The notes under the pieces were generated by a model. The model did no database searches, was not told the origin of the DNA, and saw only the letters and a list, made by a program, of their open reading frames with translations. Positions 2,328 to 46,155 of a stretch of 64,000 nucleotides of DNA are shown one piece after another. Position 1 is the first letter of the stretch; each line of letters begins with the position of its first letter. The stretch is taken from assembly GCA_026016225.1 (NCBI GenBank), contig CP061210.1, positions 450,000 to 513,999 of the forward strand, in the 5' to 3' direction. Both the position numbers and the translations under genes were made by a program. Source of the stretch: Candidatus Nealsonbacteria bacterium (GTDB lineage: Bacteria; Patescibacteriota; Minisyncoccia; Minisyncoccales; JANBVM01).

Positions 2328-2328
2328 A

Positions 2329-5324: not shown

Positions 5325-5884
5325 ATGATTACATTTCACTTGCAAAAACAGCAGTTGAAAACTATATAAAAGAGAAAAAAGTAATTTCACCCCCCGAAGA
5401 TTTACCAAGGGAATTTTTTGAGATAAAATCTGGCGTTTTTGTAACTATTGAGAAAGACGGAAAATTAAGGGGTTGTATTGGAACTTATTTAGCGACCAAA
5501 GAGAATATTGCCAGAGAGATTATTTCAAATGCTATTGCTGCTGCCATCGAGGATTATAGGTTTGGTTCCACTCGGGAAGAAGAACTTCCCTATCTTTCTT
5601 ACACTGTTTATATTCTAAACGAACCTGAACAAGTTAAAGATATTAAAGAATTAGATACTAAAAAATATGGTATAATTGTAAAAACCATTCCTATTGTAGA
5701 TGTAGATAAAACAGATGTAGTCTTTAATGGCCATTTACCTCATAAAACAGGACTTTTACTTCCTGATTTGGAAGGAGTAAACACCATAGAAAAACAAATT
5801 TCAATTGCCTGCCAAAAAGCAGGAATTAATCCTCAAAAAGAAAAAATAATCATCTACCGATTTATTGTAAAAAAGTATCAATAG
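5321..5884 (+). CDS. amrA: AMMECR1 domain protein (AmmeMemoRadiSam system protein A)
   Basis: LRGCIGTY motif diagnostic of AMMECR1. Overlaps the methyltransferase gene by 4 nt. Confidence 0.8.
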   Translation: MNDYISLAKTAVENYIKEKKVISPPEDLPREFFEIKSGVFVTIEKDGKLRGCIGTYLATKENIAREIISNAIAAAIEDYRFGSTREEELPYLSYTVYILNEPEQVKDIKELDTKKYGIIVKTIPIVDVDKTDVVFNGHLPHKTGLLLPDLEGVNTIEKQISIACQKAGINPQKEKIIIYRFIVKKYQ

Positions 5885-5893
5885 TTTGGAATT

Positions 5894-5934
5894 AAAAAAA
5901 GCGGCTTCAGACCTCTCAAAAAAGCCGCTTTTTT
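5894..5934. terminator. Bidirectional rho-independent terminator
   Basis: aaaaaagcggctt...aagccgctttttt: GC stem flanked by an A-run and a T-run, between convergent genes. Confidence 0.7.
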
Positions 5935-6256: not shown

Positions 6257-7360
6257 CTATTTTTCTCTTTTTCCTAAAATGAAATCTTCAACCATTTCTC
6301 TTGCTTTTTCGTCTGTAAATTGAATCGGTGGTGATTTCATAAAATAAGCTGAAGCTGAAATTAAAGAACCTCCTATATTTCTATCTAAGGCAATCCTTAA
6401 TAATCTAATAGCATCAATCACGCACCCTCCAGAGTTTGGAGAATCTTCAACAGAAAGTCTTAATTCAACTTCAACCGGCATATTACCGAACTTTCTTCCT
6501 TCAATTCTGATAAAACAAACTTTATTATCTTTTAACCAGGGAACATAATCTGAAGGACCCACATGTAAGTTGTCATAACTTAATCTTTTTGAAAGCTGAG
6601 ATTCAACACTTTCTGTTTTTGAGATTTTTTTTGATTTAAGGCGTGAGCGAGAAAGCATATTTAAAAAGTCAGTATTTCCTCCTACGTTTAGCTGATAAGA
6701 TTTATCTATTTTGACTCCCCTTTCGGAAAAAAGATGGCTCAATATCCGATGAATAATAGTAGCTCCTACCTGAGACTTAATATCATCTCCGATACAAGGT
6801 AGATTTTTCTTTTTGAACTTTTCTGCCCAACTTTTATTTGAAACTATGAAAACCGGCATACAGTTTAAGAAAGCGCACCCGGTTTTTAAAGCTGCTTTGG
6901 CATAAAATTCTGTTGCTTTTTGAGAGCCAACAGGACAATAATTTATTAAGATTTCAGCTCCTGACTTTTTTAATTCTTTTACAACGTCTACAGGTTTTTC
7001 TTTTGATACGGCAAACCTTTTTTCTTCAGGATAATTTTTTAAGTGTTTAGCTACTCCGTCTAAAACAGGACCCATTTTTACTTTTGCCTTCAAATTTGGT
7101 ATCTTAGAATTAAAGACTTTTGTACAATTAGGTTTGGCAAAGATTGCTTTTGAAATATCTTTTCCAACCTTTCTCTTATCAATATCAAAAGCAATTACAG
7201 GTTTTATATCAGACACTCTGTATTTGTTAATAAGATTGTGCATTAAACCGGGTATTAATTCATCGTCAGTTTTTACGTTTTTATAGTAAAAAATACCCTG
7301 GATTAGAGATGAGGCACAATTCCCCAGTCCTACAATAGCAATTTTGATTCCTTTTTTCAT
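6257..7360 (-). CDS. myo-Inositol-1-phosphate synthase
   Basis: 367 aa. N-terminal Rossmann motif IAIVGLGNCASSLIQG plus GDDIKSQVGATI and SPNSGG motifs typical of archaeal/bacterial MIPS. Confidence 0.75.
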   Translation of the reverse strand: MKKGIKIAIVGLGNCASSLIQGIFYYKNVKTDDELIPGLMHNLINKYRVSDIKPVIAFDIDKRKVGKDISKAIFAKPNCTKVFNSKIPNLKAKVKMGPVLDGVAKHLKNYPEEKRFAVSKEKPVDVVKELKKSGAEILINYCPVGSQKATEFYAKAALKTGCAFLNCMPVFIVSNKSWAEKFKKKNLPCIGDDIKSQVGATIIHRILSHLFSERGVKIDKSYQLNVGGNTDFLNMLSRSRLKSKKISKTESVESQLSKRLSYDNLHVGPSDYVPWLKDNKVCFIRIEGRKFGNMPVEVELRLSVEDSPNSGGCVIDAIRLLRIALDRNIGGSLISASAYFMKSPPIQFTDEKAREMVEDFILGKREK

Positions 7361-7415: not shown

Positions 7416-7718
7416 ATGTTGCCAATGGAACGACTTCAAAAATCAAATACCAAGGAGAATTTATGGCTCTATATTCTTTCTCTGCTTAAAAAGAGGAAGA
7501 TTTACGGTTGGGAAATCCCCACTCTCATTAAAAAAAACTTTAATTTTAAACCAGGTAGAATTACTCCCTACAGAGTACTCTATAGATTAGAAAAAGAAGG
7601 TTTGGTTAAAAGCAAAATGGAAGAAAGAAGAAGAATTTATCAAATTACAAAAAAGGGGGAAGAAGAATTGAAACGAGCTAAAGGATTTTACAAAGAAGTT
7701 TTGAAAAAATTAAAATGA
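7416..7718 (+). CDS. PadR-like winged-helix transcriptional regulator
   Basis: 100 aa. Paralogue of 5951..6250, divergently placed from the MIPS gene. Confidence 0.6.
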   Translation: MLPMERLQKSNTKENLWLYILSLLKKRKIYGWEIPTLIKKNFNFKPGRITPYRVLYRLEKEGLVKSKMEERRRIYQITKKGEEELKRAKGFYKEVLKKLK

Positions 7719-8383
7719 TTAATAAAAAAGTAGCTCAAATATTATACGAGATAGGAGAATTATTAGATATTCAGGGAATAGCTTATAAACCTAAAGCCTA
7801 TCGAAAAGCTGCCAAGGCTTTAGAGAACCTGAAAGAAAATATTTCTCAAATTTATAAGAAAGAAGGAATTAAAGGGATTAAAGAGGTTCCGGGTATTGGG
7901 AAAAGTATTGCCGAAAAAATTGAAGAATATTCAAAAAATAAAAAAATTAAATATTATGAAGAGCTAAAGGAGAAATCAGTCATTCGACAAATTATTACTC
8001 ATTATTTTAAAACGAAGGGATTGAGTTTAGTAGAACTTAAAAAAGACGCTAAAAAAAGAAAAATAGTTTACTCCCGCTTCACTAAACCAGCTAAGCAACT
8101 TTTAGTATTAGCGGGATCTGTAGAAAAGGCAAAAAAAGCCATTGACAAAGTAGCTAAATGGGCGAAGTCAAGAGATTTAGATTATGCCATTGAAACAGTT
8201 TTTAAGAAATGGTTAGAATTAGACAGGTTAAAGCCAAAAGAAATTATAAAAAAACCCTATTATAGAGGAGATCCAATGATTTGGTCAGAAACAAAAAGAA
8301 AATGGTATGTTATAGATGAAACAGGCAGGTGGTTAGAATTTGTCGGCAAAGAATCAGAAATGGAATGGAGAATTATAAAATAA
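7715..8383 (+). CDS. Helix-hairpin-helix protein related to the N-terminal (8-kDa/HhH) region of family X DNA polymerases; no polymerase domain
   Basis: VAQILYEIGELLDIQGIAYKPKAYRKAAKALENL and VPGIGKSIAEKIEEY resemble the Pol X N-terminus. The C-terminal 120 aa are unrecognised. Confidence 0.45.
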   Translation: MINKKVAQILYEIGELLDIQGIAYKPKAYRKAAKALENLKENISQIYKKEGIKGIKEVPGIGKSIAEKIEEYSKNKKIKYYEELKEKSVIRQIITHYFKTKGLSLVELKKDAKKRKIVYSRFTKPAKQLLVLAGSVEKAKKAIDKVAKWAKSRDLDYAIETVFKKWLELDRLKPKEIIKKPYYRGDPMIWSETKRKWYVIDETGRWLEFVGKESEMEWRIIK

Positions 8384-8415
8384 GCATTAATAATTGAATA
8401 TTGAATACTAATACT

Positions 8416-8979
8416 ATGGTTTCTTATTCTGAACTAAAAAAAGGCGTAAAAATTATTTTAGAAAAAGAACCCTATGAAATAATTGACTCAGCTCCCATGT
8501 TTAAAGCAAGGGGGCATTCTGTTTTGCAAACGAGGTTAAGGAACTTAAAAACAGGAAATGTTATTTCCCGTACTTTACATCCTTCTGATTCCTTTGAAGA
8601 AGCAGATATTTTAAAAAAGAAAGCTAAATTCCTCTATTTCCATAGAGAAAAGTATGTCTTCTGTGATAAAGACAATCCTTCAAATAGATTTGAATTAAAA
8701 GCTGAACAAATTGAAGGAAAAAAAGGATTTTTAAAACCAAATCAGATTGTAGAAGCTTTAATTTTTGGGGATGAAATAATTAATATTTCTTTGCCCATTA
8801 AGATTAATTTGAAAGTAACAGAGGCTCCGCCCGGTCTCAAAGGTGAAAGGGCTCAATCAGGAACAAAAACAGTTAGTTTGGAAACAGGAGTTAAAATAAA
8901 TGTTCCCCTCTTTGTTAAGAGAGGAGACATAATTGAGGTTAATACTGAAACAGGAGAATATGTAAGAAGGATTGAATAA
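8416..8979 (+). CDS. efp: Elongation factor P
   Basis: SYSELKKGVKI...EPYEIIDS...LQTRLRNLKTGN pattern and three-domain length. ATG at 8416 preferred over the TTG at 8401. Confidence 0.85.
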   Translation: MVSYSELKKGVKIILEKEPYEIIDSAPMFKARGHSVLQTRLRNLKTGNVISRTLHPSDSFEEADILKKKAKFLYFHREKYVFCDKDNPSNRFELKAEQIEGKKGFLKPNQIVEALIFGDEIINISLPIKINLKVTEAPPGLKGERAQSGTKTVSLETGVKINVPLFVKRGDIIEVNTETGEYVRRIE

Positions 8980-8989
8980 TAATTAATCC

Positions 8990-9343
8990 CTATTTTTTTC
9001 CTGGGTGGTTACTGGAATTTGTAGAATAACCGCCAAACCTTTTAATTCGAACATGCTTAAAATTTTCTAAACCGTCAGGCAATTCCTGGTCATATCCTAA
9101 CGCAATTATATCAGGCTTTATCATTTCTACAATTTTTGTTTTATTTTTAGGGTCCCCTATTAAAATTCTATCAGCTATATTTAAAGACTTTAATATTTTT
9201 TTTCTTTCTTTAGCTGAAATAGCATAAGGTTTTTTATTATTTTTATCATTGGTTAAAACGACGATTAACTCACCACCGAGCTTCTTCGCCTCTTTTAAAA
9301 AGTATATATGTCCTGGATGGATTAGGTTGAAGCATCCACCCAC
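8990..9343 (-). CDS. Cytidylyltransferase-like nucleotidyltransferase (archaeal PPAT/RibL-like)
   Basis: GGCFNLIHPGHIYFLKEAKKLG is an (H/T)xGH nucleotidyltransferase motif. GTG start. Lies next to coaB, which suggests phosphopantetheine adenylyltransferase. Confidence 0.55.
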   Translation of the reverse strand: MGGCFNLIHPGHIYFLKEAKKLGGELIVVLTNDKNNKKPYAISAKERKKILKSLNIADRILIGDPKNKTKIVEMIKPDIIALGYDQELPDGLENFKHVRIKRFGGYSTNSSNHPGKK

Positions 9344-9414
9344 TAATATTTTTTTCTTGGATTTTGTTTTGATATTAAAATTTTCCTTTAAAAATTTTCT
9401 AAATCACTATTGGA

Positions 9415-10098
9415 TTATCTTTCTTCTTTAATTTTACTGTAAATTACATCCCAAACTCCTGCCGCTATTTTTTGCTTCGTATTAATAGCAAAGTGAACAA
9501 TCTTTTTAGTTGAGTTGATAATATAAACTTCATTGGTATCGACTCCGAAACCACAGCCTTCTTTTCCTATATCATTAGAAACCATCAAATCTAATTCTAC
9601 TTCTTTGAGTCTGTTGTATGCCTTTTCAATTAACATCTTTTTAGATACATTAACTTCTGCCTTAAAAGCACAAATAAAGACACGGGGAGCCACTTTTCTT
9701 GCCCGTTCAATTACTTTTGGTGTTGGTTTTAAAGGAATAACGAGGCCTTTTTGTTTGGATGGAATTTTACTTCCTTTTTTTTTAACAGGAGTGTAGTCAG
9801 CCGCTGCTGCAGTTGCAACAAAAACATCATAATTTTCCTCTTTTAATTCTTTGACCACGGCTCTGCACATTTCTTTCGTTGTTTCAACATTAATTACTTT
9901 AGCATTCTTGGGCAGTTTTGCTGTTCCCTTTCCCCAGACAATGGTTACCTTAGCTTTTCTATCTAAGGCTTCTTGGGCCATTGCTACCCCCATCTTTCCG
10001 GAAGAGGCATTGCTTATAAAGCGAATGGGGTCAATATATTCCCTGGTGGCACCGGCTGTTATTAATACTTTTAAATTTCTCAAAGCTGAACTTTTCAT
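9415..10098 (-). CDS. coaB: Phosphopantothenate--cysteine ligase (CoaB domain only)
   Basis: ITAGATREYIDPIRFISNASSGKMG signature. No CoaC domain is fused. Confidence 0.85.
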   Translation of the reverse strand: MKSSALRNLKVLITAGATREYIDPIRFISNASSGKMGVAMAQEALDRKAKVTIVWGKGTAKLPKNAKVINVETTKEMCRAVVKELKEENYDVFVATAAAADYTPVKKKGSKIPSKQKGLVIPLKPTPKVIERARKVAPRVFICAFKAEVNVSKKMLIEKAYNRLKEVELDLMVSNDIGKEGCGFGVDTNEVYIINSTKKIVHFAINTKQKIAAGVWDVIYSKIKEER

Positions 10099-30671: not shown

Positions 30672-31649
30672 CTATTTTTCTTGTTCTAATTTTGGTTCTT
30701 TATCTAAATCTACTTCTACTTCTCCGACTTTTAATTTCTTTTTATTTATCCAAACAAAACCTTTGTCTGGAGTGATTACGGCAACATCAACAAGACCTCC
30801 AACTCCAGGTATACCCCCTGGGTCAGCTGCAATACCATCAGAGAAGCGCTGAATAGCAGAAGTGGTTTGAATCATCAAAACACAAAAGTCAATTGCATCT
30901 TGAAGGGTCATTGTTCCCCACTGAATAACGTATTCTAAATTTCTGAGTTGCTTATGTACTTCTTCCTGCCCATATTTATCAGCCGCTTCATTAACAAACT
31001 TTATGTTCCTAATCCGACCGTCCCAGCCCAAAACAATCCTTGAAACTACATCAATCTGTCCAATCCAAGAAGCCCCGTATTCTTTGCCTTTTTCTTTACC
31101 ATCTCTTTTCTTTTGGATCTCGCCAGGAATATAGCACGTATAAACCTCATGTGAACCATCTTTGTTATAACCTGCTATAATGAAATTTATCACATCGACC
31201 CCACCTACGCCATTTTTCAAATTACCTTTAGCATCTTTAAAACGGAACTTAACAGCGTATTGCTCTTTTTTAATCTCTATAACTTCGCAACCCTGTTTCT
31301 GAAGGTCATTTTTAATCTTTTCTGGTAATTTATCTAATTGTTCCTGCCAGTTATATTTCTTATTAAATAAATAATGTAATTTTTCAGCTGCCTCCTTAAC
31401 ATCTAATTTTTCTATATCTATTTCTCGCTTAAATTGCTCGATAAATTTACTAATATTTTTCATTATTCCATCCTCTGGTAAAAAAGCTAGACCGGTTACT
31501 GCTACACCAATTCTTTTATTCAACTGAAAAAGCTTAGAAGCATTATCGCTTCCAATCCGTGCCATTCCTTTCCTGTTACGATAGGACTGCCGACTATCAG
31601 CAGCTAAAATGATTCCTTCTGGAGTTGTAGTGTTAATTGCTAAGGACAT
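30672..31649 (-). CDS. Proteasome beta-subunit/HslV-type Ntn hydrolase homologue with large insertion
   Basis: MSLAINTTTPEGIILAADSRQS (Thr nucleophile context), NASKLFQL, GVAVTGLA and IIAGYNKDGSHEVY. 325 aa. Confidence 0.65.
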   Translation of the reverse strand: MSLAINTTTPEGIILAADSRQSYRNRKGMARIGSDNASKLFQLNKRIGVAVTGLAFLPEDGIMKNISKFIEQFKREIDIEKLDVKEAAEKLHYLFNKKYNWQEQLDKLPEKIKNDLQKQGCEVIEIKKEQYAVKFRFKDAKGNLKNGVGGVDVINFIIAGYNKDGSHEVYTCYIPGEIQKKRDGKEKGKEYGASWIGQIDVVSRIVLGWDGRIRNIKFVNEAADKYGQEEVHKQLRNLEYVIQWGTMTLQDAIDFCVLMIQTTSAIQRFSDGIAADPGGIPGVGGLVDVAVITPDKGFVWINKKKLKVGEVEVDLDKEPKLEQEK

Positions 31650-32715: not shown

Positions 32716-34641
32716 TTACAAATCCGCTTTTTGAGTGCATTGAGAATCAATATAAATTTCGCTATCAATGGAATTGAAAAAATATCCTGGGTAATAAATA
32801 GACTTAGGACACCAGGACACTACTCTTTGGGTGCAATTACTATCCCAGTACTCGTTATACCCATCATAGTAAGTATCGGAATAATTGGGAGAGGGCCTAC
32901 AGAAGATTGCCCTCTGGATGCACCAAGAATCAGAATAATAATCAACACCGTTATAAAAGTATCCTGGATAATTTGTTGATTTAGAACATCCCTTTACTAC
33001 TTTTTGAGTGCAATTACTATTCCAGTAAAATTCTTCTCTATTAACATCCCAATAGAAATCAGGGTTATCTGGATAACGAAGACAGGTGGTTAAATTTCGA
33101 CATTGGTTGTCTGAATAATAATTACTACCGTCATAATAATAACCAGGAAAGTCTGGTGAAGCGTAGCAGGGTTTTATATATCGCGGGTACACAGTAATTG
33201 ATTCATTGGAAGGAATTTTAACTATTGAGGCAGAGACATTACGATATTCGGGTGGTAAATCTCCAATACTAAACTCTTCGCCAGTTGTTTCAAAGTAGTA
33301 GTAATTTCTACCATTACTTAATGGATAATAATAGCCGCTAGGGTTGTTAGAAAATGGTACCGCTACGGCCATGTGGCCTGGTAATTCAACTAAGACAACA
33401 TCAATAGGCATGGCAATAATAACTGCTGCAGCTAAATAACTAGTATCTTCGCAATCTCCATTTTGTTCTGCAATTGTTTCCAATGGATATTTAGGATAGT
33501 CGTTATAACCTATAACATCATCGCCAACATACCCTAGTGATTGGATAAACGATATGGCAAAATCAGATTTTGTGTAGCCATTATCATCAGCAGTTTTTTT
33601 AAGCATTTCTGCTATTTGTTTAATATATTTATCATCGTAGGTAACATAAGTTGCTCCATGCGATTCACGTTTTTTATTTTTATAATAATCATACCAATCC
33701 GATGGGAAAGAATAATCCCATTTCCAAGATTCACCGCCATAGTCCCATTCAAAATGCTGAGCTATTAACCTCCCTCCCCCAGCTGGATGAGAATCTAGGC
33801 TGTCGATAATCCCATCGCTATCGGAATCGGGGTTTAAATCTGATGTCCCAGCAACTAATTCTTGAGCGTAAGTTAAGCCGTCGCCATCATTATCGGCATT
33901 CATTCTTTTTTCTTCAGCTTCTTTTTCTGACAATTTCTGTTCGGCGATTTTCCTCTCTAATTCTTCTTGAGCTCTTTTAGCTTCTTCTTTGGCTCTTTTG
34001 ACAGCTTCTTCCTTTGCTTTTTGTTCAGCTTCCTCTCTGGCTATTTTTTCTCCAGTAAGCTCTCCTTCAACTATTTTCCTTTTTGCCTCTTCTATTTTAG
34101 TTTGAGCTTTTTGATAATAAAAAGACTGTTCAGGAAGCTCTGACAATAAATCTACGGCTTCTTGATAATTACCCTTACCGAACTCATCTAATCCTTGATT
34201 ATATTTTGATAAATCTTTGATTAGCTTCTCGGTCTCTTCTTGTTTATTAGTAATTTCTTGCTTTTTAATACCTAAATTTTTAACAAACCAACTAATCTGA
34301 GCGAGATTTAATTTTTCGCTCGCCTCATTATATTTTTCTTCCGTTGTTAACCGTTCGGCCTCTTTTACCAATTTAGAAATTTTATTATATTCAATCGCTC
34401 CATAAGCAATTCCTGTAGTTACTAAAATAGAGACTACAATTCCTGCCAACAGCGGAATCTTAATAAGGTCTTTATTTTTCTTTATCGTTTTCTTATATCT
34501 TCCGAGATTCTTTCTTAAATCATCAGAAAGCGCTTTAAAAGCTCTATTTAAGACTTCAGGTTTTGCTTTATAAATATATCTCAGTTTTGTCTTTTTATTT
34601 TTTCGTCTCCCTCTTTTATTTTCCTTAATTTTTTCTTTCAT
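32716..34641 (-). CDS. Large membrane-anchored protein: coiled coil, Ca-binding Asp-rich (thrombospondin type-3-like) repeats, transglutaminase-like Cys protease core, C-terminal Cys/Tyr-rich repeats
   Basis: TM helix near residue 65. DNDGDGLTY...NPDSDSDGIIDSLD. NGDCEDTSYL...PGHMAVAV (Cys/His core). Four or more copies of a PGY(F/Y)YxGxxYYSDxxC-like repeat. Confidence 0.6.
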   Translation of the reverse strand: MKEKIKENKRGRRKNKKTKLRYIYKAKPEVLNRAFKALSDDLRKNLGRYKKTIKKNKDLIKIPLLAGIVVSILVTTGIAYGAIEYNKISKLVKEAERLTTEEKYNEASEKLNLAQISWFVKNLGIKKQEITNKQEETEKLIKDLSKYNQGLDEFGKGNYQEAVDLLSELPEQSFYYQKAQTKIEEAKRKIVEGELTGEKIAREEAEQKAKEEAVKRAKEEAKRAQEELERKIAEQKLSEKEAEEKRMNADNDGDGLTYAQELVAGTSDLNPDSDSDGIIDSLDSHPAGGGRLIAQHFEWDYGGESWKWDYSFPSDWYDYYKNKKRESHGATYVTYDDKYIKQIAEMLKKTADDNGYTKSDFAISFIQSLGYVGDDVIGYNDYPKYPLETIAEQNGDCEDTSYLAAAVIIAMPIDVVLVELPGHMAVAVPFSNNPSGYYYPLSNGRNYYYFETTGEEFSIGDLPPEYRNVSASIVKIPSNESITVYPRYIKPCYASPDFPGYYYDGSNYYSDNQCRNLTTCLRYPDNPDFYWDVNREEFYWNSNCTQKVVKGCSKSTNYPGYFYNGVDYYSDSWCIQRAIFCRPSPNYSDTYYDGYNEYWDSNCTQRVVSWCPKSIYYPGYFFNSIDSEIYIDSQCTQKADL

Positions 34642-37141: not shown

Positions 37142-37939
37142 CTAAAGAATATATTTTTCTTCAACTAAGAATCCTGGATGTTTAAAGATAGCTATAGCGA
37201 ACTTGTTATCTGGGGAGGTAACAATATAATTGTGTTTATCTTTATCTAATGGCACGGGCTCATATTTTTTCACGCTTGAGCCCTCAGGGATATATTGAAG
37301 ATCAAAAACAGGAGAAATAAAATAGCAATTAGCGTTTACCTTAAAGAACTCGTCTAAATCTTCGCTTTTGTAATTCAAAAAGTCCCTTTGATAAACCAAA
37401 ACAATCTCTTCGTAATTTTTTACTATCATTTGAAGTTTTTCAACATCTATGGGTCGGAAGGGAGATAAGGAATCACCTACTAAATTTTCATAATCAACAT
37501 ACTCTTTAACTTGGAAAAGATAAGGTAAATGTTCCGCAGGCAATCTGAGCTGTTTATCGTCCAATTTATCAATCTTTACTCCGGGTTCAACAATCATCAC
37601 CGCAGTATCGCACGAGGATTCTTTTTTTGGCAAAACAACAAAAATTAAACTACCGGAAGGGAACTTACTTTCCAAATATCTGAGGAATACTGTTGTAATA
37701 AATAACTCTTTTACCTTCTGTCCGTCTATTTGTTTACTGGCTACTGTAAGTTGGTCTTGTGCATTTAATTTGAAAATAGAATCGGTTAATATTTGGGCAT
37801 CAACAGGAATTACACTACCAGGCGGAAGATTCTTGAATTTATATGCTAAAGCAGCTCTAAAAATCTCTTCATAAACTCCCTGACAATTTACTCCCTCCTC
37901 ACGGCGATAGCCAAAAATTATTTTCCATGGTGTTTGCAT
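37142..37939 (-). CDS. Hypothetical protein (265 aa), third gene of a three-gene operon
   Basis: ORF only. Starts 6 nt after the upstream gene. Confidence 0.5.
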   Translation of the reverse strand: MQTPWKIIFGYRREEGVNCQGVYEEIFRAALAYKFKNLPPGSVIPVDAQILTDSIFKLNAQDQLTVASKQIDGQKVKELFITTVFLRYLESKFPSGSLIFVVLPKKESSCDTAVMIVEPGVKIDKLDDKQLRLPAEHLPYLFQVKEYVDYENLVGDSLSPFRPIDVEKLQMIVKNYEEIVLVYQRDFLNYKSEDLDEFFKVNANCYFISPVFDLQYIPEGSSVKKYEPVPLDKDKHNYIVTSPDNKFAIAIFKHPGFLVEEKYIL

Positions 37940-37945
37940 TATAAC

Positions 37946-38203
37946 TTACTTCAGGTCAATATTTTTTATTCTATCTAAAATTTTTTGATACCATTGAATT
38001 TGTTTTATTGTATCTTCAAAATCGTAATATGTTAATTTCCTATGTATTCTATTCCAAATAGCTGATCTTGTTATCGTTCCATTTTTGAAGAAAATATACA
38101 TCTTGGATTCAACAGAAGCGCCACCGTACACAAGCGGATATGTTCTAACAGTTTCGCCCCTCTCTTTTGCTTCTTCTTTTATTAGTTTTGTTAGCTCTGT
38201 CAT
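37946..38203 (-). CDS. Hypothetical protein (85 aa)
   Basis: 4-nt ATGA overlap with the upstream ORF. Confidence 0.45.
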   Translation of the reverse strand: MTELTKLIKEEAKERGETVRTYPLVYGGASVESKMYIFFKNGTITRSAIWNRIHRKLTYYDFEDTIKQIQWYQKILDRIKNIDLK

Positions 38204-38754
38204 ATTTTCAAAATTTTAATTTTCTTAATTTTTTCTTTCATAAGAACTTTAATTAATTTATCCCAGTCTCCAGTTATATGCAATTCTCCTCTTTCAATCG
38301 CCCTCTCAAGGTTGGTCTTTCTTTCTAATAATAAGAAAGAAAAGTCTCCTAATTTTTGTTCATCTGGATAGTATTTGTAGTTGGTGTTTTCAGAAACAGT
38401 CAGGTAAATACACTTTATTTCTTTATTGACTCTTTTTATAGAGCCAAATACCTTTTTTATATTTTCAACTCCCTCTTTTGAATAAATCCCTCTGAATTTT
38501 ATTTCCAAAACTGCAATAACTTGCTTAGGTTTATAAAGTAAATTTTCTTGAGCTTTTTCTCCTTCTTTTAGCACTATCAAATCTAATTCATAAGGAATGC
38601 CTTTGATAAAAACATCTCTATTACTTACATTGAGTCCCTTTTTAATGAACTCTTTTCTTAAAAGCTCGATAGTTAATGCACCAATGAATTTGGTAGCTCT
38701 CATTTCGTTCCTAAATTTCATTATTGTGTTTAGTAGTTTGAGTTCCTTTTTCAT
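38200..38754 (-). CDS. PD-(D/E)xK nuclease-fold candidate (184 aa)
   Basis: YELDLIVLK ... VIAVLEIKF spacing fits a D...ExK catalytic core, with a preceding helix Glu (LTIELL). Confidence 0.4.
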   Translation of the reverse strand: MKKELKLLNTIMKFRNEMRATKFIGALTIELLRKEFIKKGLNVSNRDVFIKGIPYELDLIVLKEGEKAQENLLYKPKQVIAVLEIKFRGIYSKEGVENIKKVFGSIKRVNKEIKCIYLTVSENTNYKYYPDEQKLGDFSFLLLERKTNLERAIERGELHITGDWDKLIKVLMKEKIKKIKILKI

Positions 38755-38836
38755 CTATTTTATGATTTCTAAAAATCAGTTTCTCTGCTTTTAAAATAAC
38801 CTCATTTCTTTGAAATTTCAAGCCGAAATAAAAATT

Positions 38837-38850
38837 GCCCAGCGATGGGC
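38837..38850. terminator. Hairpin GCCCAGCGATGGGC with flanking A/T runs (copy 1 of 3 identical)
   Basis: aaaaattGCCCAGCGATGGGCtttttaaat. Identical 14-mers at 61905 and 63214. Confidence 0.6.
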
Positions 38851-38894
38851 TTTTTAAATCAAATTAAGAAAAAACTAATTTATCCATCAAAAAT

Positions 38895-39674
38895 TTAAAC
38901 ATCCATTTTTTCTTCAGCAACTTGTTTAATCTTCTGTTGAATTTTCTCTTTAAATTCCTTACCAACTGAATCAAATAGTGTTAAAAGCTGTTCGAAGGTA
39001 TCTTCGCCACCGAGAAAATTCCAATATTCTTCACCAATTAAAAATTCTTTTCCTCTTTCTAAAACTCCTTGTTCTGTAAATCTTTCGTATGGCTTTGGAT
39101 GATAGGGATTATAGGGGAAAGATAGGAAAACTTTTACTGGTTTTCTGCGCCGTGCTATCCATTCTAATAATTTTGTCTTTGATTTTGTAAAAACATCGAT
39201 ATTAGGTTTTACGGTTTTAATTTCAAAATAATGTTCTACGCCCCCTTTAAGTATATAAAGGTCAGCTATTCTACCTTCTTTCTGAGCCTTACCATCTCTT
39301 GGAGAAGCACTTAAAACTTCTTTCATTTCTCTTTCACTATTTACCCTTCTTTCCTTATTCCTTAATTCGCGGACTATATTACCTATAATGGACTTTTGCT
39401 CTTTTGAAAGTACGCCACCAATATCATATTTAGTAAAACATTCTTTGGCAGAATCAGAAGCAATAATTTTTGAAACGTCTTCATAAATAGACATTCCTAA
39501 CGTCGTAGCTAAAGAATGAATAAAGGAATAAGCAGCAACTTTTTCGCTGTCTTGAATAAGACGAGTAAGAAATGGCATTGAGGTAGTTTCTCGGCTATAT
39601 CTTTTTAACTTACTCTCAATTTTTTGCTGTAATAATCCTTTAATCTGTTGTTTTTGATTGCTTGATAATGGCAT
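38895..39674 (-). CDS. Probable type II restriction endonuclease (TdeIII-like by recollection)
   Basis: Starts 5 nt after the methyltransferase gene. FIHSLATTLGMSIYE and YFEIKTVKPN (ExK-like) motifs. The family assignment needs an HMM check. Confidence 0.45.
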   Translation of the reverse strand: MPLSSNQKQQIKGLLQQKIESKLKRYSRETTSMPFLTRLIQDSEKVAAYSFIHSLATTLGMSIYEDVSKIIASDSAKECFTKYDIGGVLSKEQKSIIGNIVRELRNKERRVNSEREMKEVLSASPRDGKAQKEGRIADLYILKGGVEHYFEIKTVKPNIDVFTKSKTKLLEWIARRRKPVKVFLSFPYNPYHPKPYERFTEQGVLERGKEFLIGEEYWNFLGGEDTFEQLLTLFDSVGKEFKEKIQQKIKQVAEEKMDV

Positions 39675-39679
39675 AGGAT

Positions 39680-40855
39680 CTAGTGATTTTTAATAAAATA
39701 ATAAATGCTTTCGCTAAACCTTATGTTGTCACGCTCTGTTCTCATAAGAACAGGGCGGTGATATATTTTTTCAATACTGTAATTACAAAGTTTAGCGATG
39801 TCCGGATAGAGATTATCTCTGTCATTAACAACGACAAATATTTTTGCTTTTGGTTTCAACCACTGATTAATATTTTTAAAAACTTCAATAATATCCCTTT
39901 TATACTCTTCTTTGGCTTCCTGACTTTTGCCTTTTGATGCAGGGCCAATTTCTTTTACACAATTATTATCAAACCCAAAAAGCTCATAAGCATAACGGTG
40001 TTGGTCGTGATAATCGATTAAGCCAATATAGGGAGGAGAGGTAAAAATGCCGTCAAATTTACCACCCTTATAATCCGGAAGCTCATTTAGTTTTATTTCC
40101 CTTGAGTCTCCTTGAATAATTTTCATTTTAGCGTTAGTTCTTAACTCATCAAATTCTTTAATACGCCTTATAGTACCTAAACTGTAACGATTTATGAATT
40201 TTAGAGCTTCATCAACTGGCCGACATGTCCTCTTGTGTTTTATACACCAATAGGGCTTTTTTATTGGCTTTTTAGGTCTTGCCAAATCATAATGAGGTAT
40301 TTGACGAGCACTCCGAGCCGAACGACTTAATATTATTTTTAGGATATCTTGGTTTTTATAATTTTTAATTTGTTCTCGATAAAACAAAATCTCCTGCAAT
40401 GCTCTTTTAGAGAACCATGTATTGAAATAATTATTATCTATCGTAAACTCTTTGTATCCCTTTTTAAACAAGGCAGGTTGTTTTGAATGTCGATACCAAT
40501 TACTAAAATCTTTTGTTTTAGATAGAATATCCTTAATCTCAGCTTCTACTTCTGGAATGTTATATTTTTTTGTTTTAATTTCAGAAATTAAACAATTAAA
40601 AAGGGAAATCTCTATACCTGCTGAATTCATACCAAGGATGTTAGATTCAATAAGAGCAGTTCCTGACCCCAAAAAGGGATCTAATATCCAATCTCCTTTT
40701 TTGAAGTAATGTTTTAAAAATGCCTCTACGAGTTGCGGTATAAATTTACCTAAATAAGGATGTAAACGATGGACATGTTTTGTTCTTTTATATTCTTGCA
40801 CATTGGCAAAAGATAAATCTATCCCGTTTAATGATGTTAGAGATTTGTTTGACAT
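39680..40855 (-). CDS. DNA methyltransferase (N6-adenine/N4-cytosine type)
   Basis: DPFLGSGT (SAM motif I) in the N-terminal part and FTSPPY (catalytic motif IV) in the C-terminal part. Confidence 0.75.
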   Translation of the reverse strand: MSNKSLTSLNGIDLSFANVQEYKRTKHVHRLHPYLGKFIPQLVEAFLKHYFKKGDWILDPFLGSGTALIESNILGMNSAGIEISLFNCLISEIKTKKYNIPEVEAEIKDILSKTKDFSNWYRHSKQPALFKKGYKEFTIDNNYFNTWFSKRALQEILFYREQIKNYKNQDILKIILSRSARSARQIPHYDLARPKKPIKKPYWCIKHKRTCRPVDEALKFINRYSLGTIRRIKEFDELRTNAKMKIIQGDSREIKLNELPDYKGGKFDGIFTSPPYIGLIDYHDQHRYAYELFGFDNNCVKEIGPASKGKSQEAKEEYKRDIIEVFKNINQWLKPKAKIFVVVNDRDNLYPDIAKLCNYSIEKIYHRPVLMRTERDNIRFSESIYYFIKNH

Positions 40856-40902
40856 ATCTATTCCTTAATTTACCTTACACTTATTTTTGTTTTTTATCAA
40901 AT

Positions 40903-40938
40903 GATTTTTGACAATTTTTGACGACTTTTGACAAAAAA
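40903..40938 (-). promoter_or_regulatory. Three helically phased direct repeats GTCAAAA (10-nt period) upstream of the methyltransferase gene
   Basis: Minus strand: TTGTCAAAAGTCGTCAAAAATTGTCAAAAATC. Lies ~50-80 nt upstream of the ATG. Confidence 0.45.
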
Positions 40939-40960
40939 CGAAGCCTTATGGTTTCGCTAG
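40936..40960 (-). terminator. Rho-independent terminator of 41051..41704
   Basis: Minus strand: CGAAACCATAAGGCTTCG followed by TTTTTTG. Confidence 0.5.
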
Positions 40961-40978
40961 GATAATTTTTTTATATAG

Positions 40979-41105
40979 ATTTTGGCTGCTTGCATTGAGC
41001 TTGCCGAACTGCTAGCATTCTCGGTCCAGAACAGAAATTTTAAGAGGAAATTAAGGGCTTTTTGGGGGTGTTTCAGAACGCGTCTCGGTCGGTTCGTCTT
41101 TGGTG
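40979..41105 (-). repeat. L-type long intergenic repeat (overlaps the 3' end of the upstream ORF)
   Basis: Minus strand: GACCGAGACGCGTTCTGAAACACCCCCAAAAAGCCCTTAATTTCCTCTTAAAATTTCTGTTCTGGACCGAGAATGCTAGCAGTTCGGCAAGCTCAATGCAAGCAGCC. Confidence 0.7.
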
Positions 41106-41704
41106 GGTTGCGGCGGCTGGGTTGCGGCGGACGGCTTTTTCTTCTTATAGACCCAGGAATATATCCATTCTATGGGCATCGGCTTCACTTGTTTTTTTGA
41201 TATTTTTTCAATTTCTTGATTTAGATAAAAAAGCATTATACTTGCAATCGTTAAAAAATCACCTCTAGCTCCCTCTGGATAAATACTTCTTGCCTCTTGT
41301 AAATTTCTTACAATATCGGAAGAGTAAATTAAAGTAGTTAATAGGTCTTTTACAACACCACTTTCTAGATTTGAGCCATATACATTATGAGCAAAATCAT
41401 TTCTTATTTTTCTTATTATATGAAGATCATGCGCAAGTTTTTGACTAATTAAACCTAAACGATGTGCAAATTGTACTTTCGAATTGAAATTTGACAGGGG
41501 AGCTGTAGGACCATCAAATAATTCATCATCCTTGGTGCTTACCTGAACAAGATAATTTTTTAATAAAGTAGTTAGTGTGTTCTCAATTAGAGAGGCGGTT
41601 AAAATCATGGCCGCACGATCTGTTTCTTTAGAAAACTCCTCTAAAAGAAAATCTGCCCAATATTCTGGCAAACTTTTTTTTATTTTTTTTTCATTATCTG
41701 GCAT
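41051..41704 (-). CDS. DUF4145-like protein (domain common in R-M/abortive-infection contexts)
   Basis: IRKIRNDFAHN motif. Start moved to MPDNEKK because the upstream 25 codons lie in the tRNA-like repeat. The Pro/Thr-rich C-terminal tail is encoded by the L-type repeat. Confidence 0.5.
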   Translation of the reverse strand: MPDNEKKIKKSLPEYWADFLLEEFSKETDRAAMILTASLIENTLTTLLKNYLVQVSTKDDELFDGPTAPLSNFNSKVQFAHRLGLISQKLAHDLHIIRKIRNDFAHNVYGSNLESGVVKDLLTTLIYSSDIVRNLQEARSIYPEGARGDFLTIASIMLFYLNQEIEKISKKQVKPMPIEWIYSWVYKKKKPSAATQPPQPTKDEPTETRSETPPKSP

Positions 41705-41759
41705 AAATTTATATATATTTTTCGTTAATCTCGAAACTATATCTACATCCGCTGACGTC

Positions 41760-41869
41760 CTCTCGGTCGCAAAAACCAAGCACTAACCTGCTCCGGCGTT
41801 AGGATTCGAACCCCTCTCGGTCGCCCTAACGCCATAAGCGTCTCGGTCCTCGAACTGCGCTCAACGATG
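41760..41869 (-). repeat. T-type tRNA-like repeats directly abutting the 3' end of tRNA-Gln
   Basis: Minus strand after the tRNA: GCATCGTTGAGCGCAGTTCGAGGACCGAGACGCTTATGGCGTTAGGGCGACCGAGAGGGGTTCGAATCCTAACGCCGGAGCAGGTTAGTGCTTGGTTTTTGCGACCGAGAG. It contains a 9-bp stem, GGCGTTAGG/CCTAACGCC. Confidence 0.75.
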
Positions 41870-41940
41870 CTGCGGGGCTAGGATTCGAACCTAGATTGAG
41901 TTCTTCAAAGGAACCTGTGCTACCATTACACCACCCCGCA
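41870..41940 (-). tRNA. tRNA-Gln (anticodon UUG)
   Basis: Minus strand: TGCGGGGTGGTGTAATGGTAGCACAGGTTCCTTTGAAGAACTCAATCTAGGTTCGAATCCTAGCCCCGCAG. Manual cloverleaf has a 7-bp acceptor (U1-A72), anticodon loop CTTTGAA and T-loop TTCGAAT. No encoded CCA. Confidence 0.85.
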
Positions 41941-43077: not shown

Positions 43078-43674
43078 TTATTTCTTAAATACTATGAATT
43101 TATAGCCTAAAAAATTCCAGACAAAACCAATAAAAACAGCAGTCATATTTCCAATACTTGCCCACATCCGCTCACTTACTCCGAATCTTACACCAATAAT
43201 ATTTATTACAATATAAATAATTATGGTATGGATTAAAAGTCCTCCAGACGTTACAAGGAAAAACTGCACTGCCTCTTTAACTTTATTTTGGGTATCCTTT
43301 TTTTGAAAGGTCCAGAACTTATTCCAAAAATATGAATTTACTGCTCCACAGGCAAAAGATACAATTTTAAACAGAACAGGCAGCCAGCCAGAAGCAACGG
43401 AAAAAAACCATGTTAAGCAATCAAACACTCCCATATCAATGGAACTATTTAATATTCCAACCAAAAACGATTTTCCAAATTGTACAAGAGTGGAAGTTTT
43501 TTTAAAAACAGTTTCTAAAATCCAGACGCCCAGTAAAGACAAAACAGGTAGAAGTACTGGGAAATATTTTAATACCTGCTCGGGAAAAACTCCTGCAAAA
43601 AGGACGACACGGGGTAAGATAAATCCGCATGCTAAACCAATAATTAAAGAAGCTAAAATATCTCCTTTTTTCAT
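43078..43674 (-). CDS. GtrA-like membrane protein
   Basis: FLVGILNSSIDMGVFD and FWNFLGYKFIVF motifs. Its stop lies 2 nt... upstream gene dnaX follows with a 1-nt gap. Confidence 0.6.
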   Translation of the reverse strand: MKKGDILASLIIGLACGFILPRVVLFAGVFPEQVLKYFPVLLPVLSLLGVWILETVFKKTSTLVQFGKSFLVGILNSSIDMGVFDCLTWFFSVASGWLPVLFKIVSFACGAVNSYFWNKFWTFQKKDTQNKVKEAVQFFLVTSGGLLIHTIIIYIVINIIGVRFGVSERMWASIGNMTAVFIGFVWNFLGYKFIVFKK

Positions 43675-43777
43675 TGAATTATTTTATCACGAATTAGCTA
43701 AAAATCAAACCGCTAACACTCTTTTTAAAGAAATATTTAAATGCAGACTTGTTCATTTAAATAAAAAAAAGAGCTGA

Positions 43778-44662
43778 TTATTCGCTCTTTAATGCTTCTA
43801 AAATTTTTTTAAATTCTTTATATCGGGTTCTTAATGTTACTTCAGTTACGTTAGCGGCCTTAGCTAATTCCCGTTGTGTTATCTTTTCACCATATTGTTT
43901 GCAAGCGAGATATAGGGCAGCAGCTACTAATCCAGTAGGTTTTTTTCCCAGGGCGAGACCACCTTCTTCAGCCGTTTTTAAGAGCTGGCCAGCCAGAATT
44001 TGACTTCTTCCAGAAATAGCAAGCTTTTCAGAAATTCCTGGAATATATTTTAGTGGATCTAACGGTGCAATTTTTATATCAAGCACATTGAGTAAAAGTT
44101 TACAATAGCGATTAATAGTTTTTTTGCTGATAGAAGTTATCTCTGAAATTTCTTCAATAGTTTTTGGAATTTCCTTTACTCTATAGGCAATATAAATAAC
44201 AGCAGCAGCTAAATGTTCAAAACTTCTACCTTGAGTAGGAAGTTTTTTTAAAGCTTTATATAAAATCACTGCTGATTCTAATTTAACGGGCCATTCAACA
44301 TTGAGCTGGCTTAATAAAGAATGAAGTCTATCCATTGCTACATTAATTCTGTGTTTTTCTGGACCAAGGAGGCAACTGTGCCATTTTCTCATTCGATTTA
44401 TTACAGGTTGTGTATGTGAGGGAATTTTGTTTCCTCTAAAATCAAGATTTTTATGATCTATATAGCCTCCTGGGATTCCGTAATAAGTTATCGCTCCTAC
44501 AGGATATTTCGGCTCTCCATATTTTCGTTTTACACCTCCTGTCTGGTCTAATTCTTTATCCCTGATTATAAGTCCGCATTCACAACACCATTCACCTCTT
44601 GTCAGGTCGTAACTGAAATTACTATTTCCACATTCCGGGCATACTTCAACCTCTTCTTTCAT
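43778..44662 (-). CDS. Transcription factor IIB / archaeal TFB homologue
   Basis: N-terminal zinc ribbon CPECG...CCECG. Two cyclin-like repeats (GRSFEHLAAAVIYIAYR...TINRYCKLL and GKKPTGLVAAALYLACK...TLRTRYKEF). Confidence 0.8.
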   Translation of the reverse strand: MKEEVEVCPECGNSNFSYDLTRGEWCCECGLIIRDKELDQTGGVKRKYGEPKYPVGAITYYGIPGGYIDHKNLDFRGNKIPSHTQPVINRMRKWHSCLLGPEKHRINVAMDRLHSLLSQLNVEWPVKLESAVILYKALKKLPTQGRSFEHLAAAVIYIAYRVKEIPKTIEEISEITSISKKTINRYCKLLLNVLDIKIAPLDPLKYIPGISEKLAISGRSQILAGQLLKTAEEGGLALGKKPTGLVAAALYLACKQYGEKITQRELAKAANVTEVTLRTRYKEFKKILEALKSE

Positions 44663-44796
44663 TCAATCACCTATTCTTTTTTAAATGAGCAAACATATTA
44701 TTTTAATGTTGAATTATAACAGAGTTTCTAATTTTGTCAAAATAGTAAAGAAATTATAATTTGGTATAATAAAATTGATAATAATTTATTTAGTCT

Positions 44797-46155
44797 ATGT
44801 TGAAACTATACAATACTTTAACTCGGAAAAAAGAAATTTTTAAGCCAATTAAAAAGGGCCGCGTTGGGATGTATACCTGCGGTCCCACGGTCTATGGTCC
44901 GGGTCATTTAGGTCATGGTCGAAGCTATGTGAACTTTGATATCTTAAAGAGAGTATTTCTTTATAGTAGATACAAGGTAAAACACATTCTTAATATCACC
45001 GATGTCCATGATGATATGATTAAAAAAGCCAAGGAAATAGGAATCACTATCCGCCAGTTAGCTAACCTCTACACCCCCCTCTTTCTAAAAGATTTGAAAG
45101 ATTTGAATGTTATTCCGGCCGATGAGTATCCTACAGTTACAGGGCATATACCAGAAATTATTAAGATGGTTAAAATTTTGGTTGATAAAGGCTTTGGTTA
45201 TGTAGAAAAAGATGGATCTGTTTATTATGATGTTTCGAAATTTAAAGACTATGGTAAGCTTTCTGGTATTAAGTTAGATAAATCAAAGACTGGAACTAGA
45301 GTAGAGACTGATAAATACGAAAAGGGAGATGTGGCTGATTTTGCGCTTTGGAAAGGATGGAAGAAAGGAGAGCCTTATTGGAAAAGCCCCTGGGGAAAGG
45401 GCAGGCCAGGATGGCATATTGAGTGTTCGGTGATGGCTAATAAGTATTTAGGAAAGACGATTGATATTCATGGGGGCGCGATGGACTTAAAGTTTCCTCA
45501 TCATGAGAATGAAATTGCCCAATCTGAGGCAGCCAATGGAACAAAATTTGTTAACTATTGGTTTCACGCAGGGCTTTTAGAGATTGAAGGACAGAAGATG
45601 AGCAAATCTCTAGGGAACTATATTGAAATTCATGAAGTAAAAGATAAGGGTTTTGACCCTCTAGTCTTGCGCTACCTATTTTTAACAGCTCATTATCGCT
45701 CGAAAATGAATTTTACCTGGAAAAGTTTAGAAGCGGCAGAGAAAGCATTAGATAATCTTCATGAGAGGATAAGAGAAATGAAATCAAATATCAAGAAGCA
45801 AGAAGCAAGAAGCAAAAAAATAAAATATTATCAGAAAAAATTCTTGGGGTTTATTAATGATGATTTAAATACTCCTAAAGCTTTAGCTTTAATGTGGAAG
45901 GTGGTTAAAGATGAAAAAATATCTAATAAAGGAAAATACACTCTTTTATTAGACTTTGACAAGGTTTTTGGTTTAAATTTAACAAAGGTTAAAAAAATAA
46001 AAATTCCTCAAAAAGTAAGGAAGTTAGTTAAAGAAAGAGAAGACTATCGAAAGAAAAAAGAATGGAAGAGGGCTGATAAAATTAGAAAGGAGATAAAAAA
46101 ATTAGGTTATTTGATTGAAGATACAAAGGAGAAACCTAAGATTAAAAAAGCCTAA
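44797..46155 (+). CDS. cysS: Cysteine--tRNA ligase
   Basis: CGPTVYGPGHLGHGRSY (HIGH), WHIECS and QKMSKSLGN (KMSKS). Confidence 0.95.
   Translation: MLKLYNTLTRKKEIFKPIKKGRVGMYTCGPTVYGPGHLGHGRSYVNFDILKRVFLYSRYKVKHILNITDVHDDMIKKAKEIGITIRQLANLYTPLFLKDLKDLNVIPADEYPTVTGHIPEIIKMVKILVDKGFGYVEKDGSVYYDVSKFKDYGKLSGIKLDKSKTGTRVETDKYEKGDVADFALWKGWKKGEPYWKSPWGKGRPGWHIECSVMANKYLGKTIDIHGGAMDLKFPHHENEIAQSEAANGTKFVNYWFHAGLLEIEGQKMSKSLGNYIEIHEVKDKGFDPLVLRYLFLTAHYRSKMNFTWKSLEAAEKALDNLHERIREMKSNIKKQEARSKKIKYYQKKFLGFINDDLNTPKALALMWKVVKDEKISNKGKYTLLLDFDKVFGLNLTKVKKIKIPQKVRKLVKEREDYRKKKEWKRADKIRKEIKKLGYLIEDTKEKPKIKKA

Follow-up and report, generated by a model that had tools for sequence, protein, structure and literature searches.

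A hypervariable archaeal-type TFB homologue at one chromosomal site in Nealsonbacteria-like bacteria

By textbook account, transcription factor B (TFB, or TFIIB) is specific to eukaryotes and archaea. Bacteria rely on its functional analogues, the sigma factors, whose regions 3.2 and 4 sit on RNA polymerase (RNAP) comparably to the TFB B-reader and ribbon. In TFB, the ribbon binds the RNAP dock, the B-reader and B-linker reach into the RNAP cleft and position the template strand, and the second cyclin fold reads the B recognition element (BRE); TFB also stabilises the TATA-binding protein (TBP) on DNA (PMC7289017). Some archaeal copies work away from the general-factor role, such as Sulfolobus TFB3, which is no substitute for TFB and works alongside it in trans (PMC7289017). 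There is a viral precedent as well, with TFB homologues in phrog_20431, a viral family, and in Sulfolobales virus YNP2, an archaeal virus. Here we analyse a TFB homologue encoded by a bacterium. It is an open reading frame (ORF) of 294 amino acids on the minus strand, at 43778-44662 of the window, by which we mean the whole 64,000-nucleotide stretch of the Candidatus Nealsonbacteria contig CP061210.1 that was analysed. We are close to certain of its identity, its origin and its cassette behaviour. Existing NCBI labels read 'transcription initiation factor IIB [Candidatus Nealsonbacteria]' and 'TFIIB-type zinc ribbon-containing protein [Patescibacteria group bacterium]', and a full-text literature search returned no paper describing TFB in bacteria of the candidate phyla radiation (CPR), the fixed locus or the cassette behaviour.

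A TFB homologue at a fixed bacterial locus

A sequence-only reading of this region had proposed a TFIIB/TFB homologue with a zinc ribbon and two cyclin-fold repeats, lying in a bacterial setting. Using Pfam, we found the TFIIB repeat (PF00382) in two stretches of the protein (E=1.1e-32, 112 bits against a cut-off of 23.6), and the top PDB sequence matches were the TFB cores of P. woesei (1d3u_B and 1ais_B, E=4e-31). The AlphaFold model (pLDDT 73.9, with core blocks at 74-94 and residues 34-69 below 50 and disordered) superposes on 1d3u_B with 1.8 Å over 190 columns and a TM score of 0.86. The ORF is thus confirmed as a true TFB homologue, which both its fold and its sequence place in the TFIIB superfamily, and the two repeats were borne out by Pfam and by the superposition. 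The NCBIfam model for TFIIB (PRK00423) aligned over residues 2-289 with 212 bits, short of its 384-bit cut-off, and weak Sigma70_r4 matches on both helix-turn-helix (HTH) stretches fell far under the cut-offs. The window protein also matches phrog_20431 over its full length (E=4e-34) and shares 26% identity with the 'Zinc finger, TFIIB-type' protein of Sulfolobales virus YNP2. We would classify it as a derived TFB xenologue and would not call it 'the' TFB of the organism.

Regarding the domains, the zinc ribbon covers residues 8-30 (44573-44641, minus strand), with C8, C11, C26/27, C29 and G30, and its four cysteine columns are invariant across CPR and archaeal relatives. The four cysteines had been recognised from the sequence; their spacing, given as x15, has to be corrected to 13 residues between CPECG and CCECG, and of the two Pfam families suggested as a check only the TFIIB repeats passed, Zn_Ribbon_TF scoring a sub-threshold 20.7 against a cut-off of 29. 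In the model the ribbon forms three strands, and its surface loop between the cysteine pairs differs strongly between the window and the related locus L001. The following region (residues 31-105, 44348-44572, minus strand) is a degenerate B-reader/B-linker by alignment and model. The archaeal B-reader 'GPEWRAF' reads 'TGGVKRKY' with a deletion of ~7 amino acids, the B-linker 'HDKGLST' is lost and its position reads ITYYGIPGGYI, and the only element kept is 'RMRKWH' (archaeal RLRKWQ). The B-linker motif is present in the sister alleles L008, L011, L032 and L079. Cyclin-fold repeat 1 (residues 106-200, 44063-44347, minus strand) carries clade-specific changes (N to R, Y to L, I to F and R to K) at positions conserved in archaeal TFBs, while repeat 2 (residues 201-289, 43796-44062, minus strand) is the best conserved stretch of the protein, with GKxPxG, Y251 and Q263; both are delimited by Pfam, the PDB match and the superposition. 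Within repeat 2 lies the C-terminal HTH (residues 263-283, QRELAKAANVTEVTLRTRYKE, 43814-43876, minus strand), in which the sequence VTEVTLRTRYKE is conserved and T276, R278 and R280 are invariant, and which by its sequence is the counterpart of the BRE-recognition HTH of TFB. To put numbers on this pattern, we took the columns at least 75% conserved in 161 archaeal TFBs and scored them across 14 derived CPR alleles: the ribbon Cys/Gly, R90, GKxPxG, Y251, Q263, T276, R278 and R280 were retained in 86-100% of them, and the E-W-R columns of the B-reader, 81% conserved in the archaeal set, in 0-7%.

All neighbours of the gene belong to bacterial families (dnaX, GtrA, cysS, GT4, dnaB, recR, L21p, rmuC, PBP2, MraZ and EF-P), and a Candidatus Nealsonbacteria metagenome-assembled genome (661,413-bp contig) encodes an identical protein (NCBI IB617_02640), so the proposed bacterial setting holds. 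GC content is flat at ~0.33 over the window, and the TFB gene has a third-position GC content (GC3) of 0.22, the same as its neighbours. The gene order runs permease, Na/Ca exchanger, rmuC, L21, recR, dnaB, GT4 and cysS, then, divergently from cysS, TFB followed by gtrA and dnaX. A survey of CPR conservation and synteny, which the sequence-only reading had recommended, placed TFB at this same site in at least 16 independent assemblies from ENA, NCBI, JGI and Logan. These comprise loci from a South China Sea cold seep (L001 and L003; PMC9357000), a complete genome of 694,748 bp (L008; CP179891.1), deep-sea sediment (L012; SDBT01), further loci with the same gene order (L013/L014, L015/L016, L017/L018, L019/L020 and L011) and those added by a metagenome scan anchored on GtrA (L021, L024, L026, L032, L074 and L079). 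Within a Nealsonbacteria-like CPR family, TFB therefore has one fixed place on the chromosome, with cysS on one side and gtrA-dnaX on the other. In other related CPR loci TFB is absent and cysS stands directly beside gtrA (L027, L033, L035, L039, L042, L043, L045, L054, L068 and L085). In the window, gtrA with its own promoter TTGATT...TGTGATAAAAT spans 43078-43708 on the minus strand (promoter 43681-43708). Since a TGTGATAAAAT-type promoter also precedes gtrA in relatives without TFB, the TFB unit is an insertion upstream of the gtrA promoter.

The gene carries its own predicted expression signals, all of bacterial type. Upstream lies a sigma70-type promoter, TTGACA-16-TATAAT (44713-44740, minus strand), with 12 of 12 matches and a TG ahead of the -10 element, and all loci inspected have its core (TTTGACAAAAT or a close variant) ahead of their first TFB gene. 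A Shine-Dalgarno (SD) sequence, AGGTGA, stands 4 nt ahead of the ATG (44667-44672, minus strand), preceded by a conserved block of the 5' untranslated region (5'UTR), TTTAAAAAAG, and SD sequences of the GGTGAT type were present at the loci inspected; canonical alleles (see below) also have variant forms of the promoter core, 5'UTR and SD upstream. At the other end, a terminator-like hairpin, AAAGAGC-loop-GCUCUUU with a U-run, overlaps the stop codon (43763-43789, minus strand). The window hairpin folds with -7.7 kcal/mol (z=-2.7) and its sequence recurs at the same place in other loci inspected, as a conserved 3' end of the cassette, while as a fold two of the four hairpins tested were no better than shuffled sequence (z -1.1 and -1.9). 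Judged by these signals, from sigma70 promoter to terminator-like hairpin, TFB is predicted to be a monocistronic unit.

The divergent cysS-TFB spacer (134 bp, 44663-44796) has a mean column identity of 92%, above that of the flanking coding DNA, across loci whose proteins are 50-80% identical. It is also more conserved than the surrounding synonymous sites even in comparison with genomes at a synonymous divergence (dS) above 1, such as L012. Two back-to-back promoters may not fully account for this conservation, and a regulatory site in the spacer, possibly bound by TFB itself, is conceivable.

Archaeal ancestry and exchange between strains

An exhaustive HMMER search gave 5,414 TFB-like proteins, none of which, outside its own clade, exceeds ~41% identity with the window TFB; Bathyarchaeia TFBs of 312 amino acids (P0329 and P0338) are 38-40% identical. 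The link to archaea is closer through two sister loci, L032 and L079, which encode canonical TFBs with all the archaeal motifs (DKGPEWRAF, VHDKGLSTD and RLRKWQ) and are 67% identical to a tight cluster of 312-amino-acid Bathyarchaeia TFBs. Both loci belong to the same CPR family, with dnaB, dnaX and GT4 67-77% identical to those of the window. Between L032 and L079 the TFBs are 62% identical, with a ratio of nonsynonymous to synonymous divergence (omega) of 0.25 and a dS of 1.16, and the flanking proteins 70-74% identical at similar dS. Because canonical alleles at the very same locus are this close to Bathyarchaeia TFBs, the horizontal acquisition suggested earlier is supported, and the window ORF is an archaeal-derived TFB xenologue, most like Bathyarchaeia TFB.

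The alleles can be arranged in a series of increasing erosion. B-reader and B-linker are intact in the Bathyarchaeia TFBs and, as a second step, in L079 and L032; in L011 (protein P0016) the B-reader reads GGYERRAF and the B-linker is kept; in L008 (P0013) the B-reader is reduced to KGGVR with a deletion and the B-linker is kept as HDKGLQT; and in the window the B-reader is TGGVK with a deletion and the B-linker is lost. Neighbour-joining (NJ) bootstrap trees were built from two taxon sets, and the derived alleles grouped as a single clade in both, at 54% support in the one and 99% in the other. In this phylogeny with archaeal TFBs, of the kind that had been called for, the canonical CPR alleles stand beside the Bathyarchaeia cluster with 49% bootstrap, and the backbone of the tree is not resolved. 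The window allele falls in the derived clade, which has lost the B-reader (and here the B-linker too) but retains ribbon, cyclin core and BRE-type HTH. Since insertion site and promoter are shared, a single capture followed by divergence is favoured, although not proven, with repeated capture as the alternative. A scan of genome contigs with very specific peptide patterns of the three closest alleles returned only three archaeal loci.

Comparing pairs of related genomes, we found that TFB diverges far beyond its surroundings. Between the window and L001, seven neighbours are 97-99% identical at the amino acid level (dS 0.03-0.10, omega 0.07-0.2) and TFB is 80% identical, with 60 nonsynonymous and 14 synonymous codon differences (nonsynonymous divergence dN 0.116, dS 0.112, omega ~1.0). 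Against the complete genome L008 the flanks are 97-100% identical and TFB 48%; between L013 and L015 the values are 80-92% and 33%; and between L021 and L019 they are 96-98% (cysS included) and 42%. In the last pair, the low-identity block (4989-5908) exceeds the ORF (5009-5884) by only ~25 nt per end and is followed by a sharp return to 92-100% identity. Allele similarity and genome kinship are also in conflict, as the window TFB shares 62% identity with its counterpart in the distant L012 and only 48% with the one in its near-twin L008. Hypervariability and exchange between strains concern the TFB ORF and not its ends.

High nucleotide identity between the window and CP179891.1 (L008), otherwise 94-97%, stops at 45682 and resumes at 44198, and the poorly aligned tract in between (44198-45682) is a recombination mosaic that runs from TFB through the intergenic region (79% identity) into cysS and takes in the 5' two-thirds of either gene. 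The divergent neighbour cysS (44797-46155, plus strand) is itself hypervariable between near-identical genomes: it is 60% identical to that of L001 at the amino acid level, with flanks at 97-99%. Its high-identity alignment ends at window position 45682 against both L001 and L008, while sliding windows put the L001 transition nearer 45840. In L008, cysS (7456-9866) is interrupted by a 301-amino-acid ORF in another frame with a weak Phage_endo_I match, and an Rfam search of this insert found no group I or II intron match. One could argue that TFB variability is a by-product of events in cysS. We rejected this as a general cause: in the L021-L019 pair the TFB ORF alone is replaced next to a cysS that is 96% identical, so that TFB turnover is independent of cysS turnover, although cysS events may still contribute to the window-L008 mosaic that spans both genes.

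Besides replacement, the locus shows expansion. L017/L018 carry three tandem TFB paralogues of 379, 296 and 323 amino acids (6736-9929 in L017), and the TTGACA promoter core is also found upstream of the second copy in L017. This array occupies the same locus, and after it, on the other strand, comes a PALP-domain gene; at least its first two copies have their own TTGACA promoter, and the first has an extra C-terminal cyclin-like repeat. Three TFIIB-like proteins of 431-440 amino acids (P0014, P0017 and P0019, the last labelled Patescibacteria) also match in two stretches. Split genes occur as well, namely L074 (1820-2809, as 103 + 211 amino acids) and P0078 + P0036 on one 1,303-bp ENA contig; these ribbon and core parts are either pseudogenes or assembly frameshifts. 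At deeper divergence, the omega of TFB is 0.25-0.58 in comparison with 0.07-0.25 for its neighbours, which indicates a gene that is under selection, but less strongly than those around it. ORFs are intact in at least 14 divergent alleles, and TFB is retained across lineages with dS >1.

Candidate targets of the protein and other features of the window

Regarding function, the sequence-only reading had argued that a TFB kept by a bacterium would need a non-canonical role, a reasonable expectation for the window allele, in which B-reader and B-linker are lost. Given the hypervariability and the exchange between strains, an external, archaeal target becomes likelier than an internal partner. Our leading explanation, which we hold tentatively and at somewhat less than an even chance, is that the protein mimics TFB, or competes with it, in archaeal partner cells and targets their transcription machinery. 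It would not start transcription inside the bacterium; instead, it would act on the TBP-promoter-RNAP machinery of the archaea on which these epibionts live. An allele without B-reader would occupy TBP/BRE-TATA complexes and allow no initiation, with the ribbon possibly also occupying the polymerase dock, and the outcome would be a host transcription that is damped or redirected. On this view, the diversity of the alleles would follow that of the hosts, or the hosts' counter-adaptation. Judging from the domains it keeps, the window protein could plausibly still join TBP/BRE-TATA complexes and would not promote initiation in the canonical way.

Two lines of reasoning place the partner outside the bacterium. 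Sister lineages keep all the motifs that contact archaeal polymerase and TBP (PMC7289017), under purifying selection and with no bacterial partner known for them. In addition, strains with 80-100% identity in their own proteins (96-100% in three of the four pairs) differ by 20-67% in this ORF, and such variation argues for a gene that faces a variable external partner, not for a regulator matched to invariant internal ones. The lifestyle of the group is compatible with this, as methanogenic archaea carry Ca. Nealsonbacteria and other Paceibacteria as epibionts, and host ribosomal activity changes on epibiont attachment (10.1101/2022.04.20.488981; PMC10936435).

Several points weigh against a host-directed role. 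To our knowledge, no delivery of proteins from CPR bacteria into archaea has been demonstrated, and we know of no identified archaeal host for this lineage. The window TFB has no signal peptide or recognisable secretion signal, its N-terminus MKEEVEVCPECG being hydrophilic, and no secretion genes were present among the scanned window ORFs, TFB standing amid housekeeping genes and not beside a secretion system. Type IV secretion systems are, for their part, widespread in Patescibacteria (PMC12102498). The graded erosion of B-reader and B-linker is equally expected if these parts are useless inside a bacterium. Purifying selection on the canonical alleles could partly reflect their history in archaeal donors, given that the monophyly of the canonical CPR alleles has 49% bootstrap. 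Omega values above 1, sought segment by segment between the window and L001, were significant nowhere, the best segment being residues 98-120 with 15 nonsynonymous against 1 synonymous difference (p=0.12). With an overall omega of ~1 and a local excess that is not significant, positive selection on TFB is not claimed. Finally, the searches for archaeal partners within the bacterial sequence covered the window and the related loci, and ~600 kb of the rest of the genome lie outside them.

The strongest competitor, and the main rival of the host-directed reading, is an endogenous regulator: a TFB core domesticated as a TBP-independent DNA-binding protein or as an RNAP-associated factor of the CPR cell. 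It might bind the conserved cysS-TFB spacer and control itself, cysS or other genes, its useless B-reader and B-linker having decayed. Much of the anatomy would suit it, as the HTH and the second cyclin repeat are the best conserved parts, the erosion series of RNAP-contacting elements fits the loss of an unneeded function, and archaea themselves use TFB paralogues for non-canonical regulation, TFB3 among them (PMC7289017). So would the locus, since the gene is always divergent from cysS over an unusually conserved spacer, the classic layout of a regulator and its target, and combines a strong promoter of bacterial type with a stable place in the chromosome amid core genes. What a regulator does not account for is the variation: its partners are 97-100% identical between strains, which gives no obvious reason for a 20-58% difference or for replacement ORF by ORF, and the intact B-reader, B-linker and ribbon motifs at omega 0.25 in sister lineages are left unexplained. 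Besides, TFB normally needs TBP for stable DNA binding (PMC7289017). A Pfam scan of the ~59 window ORFs revealed no TBP or archaeal RNAP subunit, in line with the earlier remark that no TBP is visible in the window, and phmmer with the P. woesei TBP gave no match among six-frame ORFs from the window and 100 loci (870 kb). On balance, we regard an internal regulator as possible but unlikely.

A passenger or selfish cassette would be a weakly selected insert that spreads at a recombination hot spot by cysS, decays slowly and contributes nothing to the cell. The many related CPR loci in which cysS adjoins gtrA with no TFB in between would agree with it, as would the omega of ~1 between the two closest alleles, the split copies (L074, and P0078 + P0036) and the mosaic cysS, with its inserted endonuclease-like ORF in L008. 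It is made improbable by the at least 14 divergent alleles with an intact ORF, by the omega of 0.25-0.58 at deeper divergence (a sign of purifying selection), by the invariant Cys, GKxPxG and HTH columns, and by the conservation of promoter, SD and terminator in a gene retained across dS >1; in the L021/L019 pair, moreover, TFB was replaced beside a cysS 96% identical.

We give still less weight to a conflict with mobile elements, in which TFB variants would act against or for viruses or plasmids (as decoys, for example) and their diversity would reflect an arms race with viruses. Hypervariable cassettes and tandem expansion are typical of defence and counter-defence loci, a strain-variable island with restriction-modification (R-M) and defence genes lies 2-6 kb off, beyond dnaX, and a viral TFB family exists. 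PADLOC, however, gave no meaningful defence match for TFB, only a short mad1 match to one HTH stretch (residues 168-191) in which no stretch passed, so that membership of a defence system was discarded; the known viral TFBs come from archaeal viruses and not from phages of bacteria, TFB matches in phage and plasmid collections being archaeal only; and the conserved gtrA-dnaX-tRNA block separates the TFB unit from the variable island. We find this explanation very improbable. An assembly chimera or archaeal contamination of a bacterial bin, favoured by nothing except the oddity of the gene and already doubted in the sequence-only reading, can be ruled out, as the same junctions and synteny recur in at least 16 independent NCBI, ENA, JGI and Logan assemblies, CP179891.1 included, GC is flat, GC and GC3 match the host genome, and a bacterial promoter and SD lie directly upstream.

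Returning to the host-directed mimic, a more far-reaching form of it can be drawn, which we consider doubtful as a whole: CPR epibionts would hold a library of archaeal TFB mimics, captured from Bathyarchaeia-like archaea, exchanged as ORF cassettes and delivered into archaeal hosts, where canonical alleles would drive, and B-reader-less alleles block, host initiation.

Other features of the window and its relatives were recorded in passing. The strain-variable island lies at 37142-41940, beyond dnaX and tRNA-Gln (41869-41940), and in the window holds a TdeIII-type restriction enzyme (38895-39674), an N4/N6 DNA methylase (39680-40855) and several ORFs without a family. At the same position, L001 has GIY-YIG, zinc-ribbon/DZR proteins and a KAP NTPase, and L008 a BsaWI R-M system, HEPN and Mrr. 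In the conserved block, dnaB of L015 (3437-5215) and L016 (2808-4586) contains an intein, another selfish element, giving 592 instead of ~455 amino acids. An AmmeMemoRadiSam-type trio spans 1311-5884 (radical SAM 1311-2327, LigB/Memo-like 2329-2943 and AMMECR1 5321-5884), with a glutamine synthetase and a methyltransferase inside it and, nearby, an HMG-CoA-synthase-like gene (109-1302) and a myo-inositol-1-phosphate synthase (6257-7360). Finally, a 325-amino-acid ORF (30672-31649) has a weak N-terminal match to the Proteasome family (27 bits, with no stretch passing), and one of 641 amino acids (32716-34641) has no Pfam family.

Comparison with known systems and significance

These results describe more than a stray gene: judged by sequence features, a family of ultra-small symbiotic bacteria has long retained a TFB lineage that is under selection and is predicted to be expressed from bacterial signals, whose canonical and eroded forms share one locus and whose alleles are exchanged as cassettes between strains. 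An archaeal target would make the gene a concrete entry point, open to testing, into the ways in which CPR bacteria manipulate their archaeal hosts, and hosts could be predicted from allele type. Should the mimic library be true, it would be the first cross-domain effector known to act on basal transcription, and CPR-archaea symbioses would gain a genetic marker of host range. With an internal target, this would be the first case of a TFIIB fold put to use in the gene regulation of bacteria, with a bearing on the proposed relationship between sigma factors and TFB.

Set against the systems described so far, the window protein shares with archaeal TFB (Bathyarchaeia, 312 amino acids) the zinc ribbon, the linker, the two cyclin folds and the C-terminal BRE-type HTH. 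It differs in being encoded by a bacterium behind a sigma70 promoter, in the deleted B-reader and lost B-linker, in scoring under the PRK00423 cut-off, in having no TBP or archaeal RNAP seen nearby and in its hypervariability between strains. With sigma factors it has no significant sequence membership, and the element analogous to region 3.2 is the very part that the window TFB has lost. Sulfolobus TFB3 and the haloarchaeal TFBs, many of them on plasmids, are likewise copies away from the general-factor role; many TFB copies per genome or plasmid are known, and the three tandem copies of L017 resemble such archaeal paralogue expansions. Those paralogues, however, act in archaeal cells with TBP, a canonical TFB and archaeal RNAP, whereas here the encoding cell is bacterial. 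The TFBs of archaeal viruses (phrog_20431 and YNP2) are likewise carried by an entity that exploits the archaeal cell, but the carrier here is a cellular bacterium and the sequence relationship is distant. By analogy, then, the closest functional parallels would be the non-canonical TFB paralogues of archaea, such as TFB3, and the viral TFB copies.

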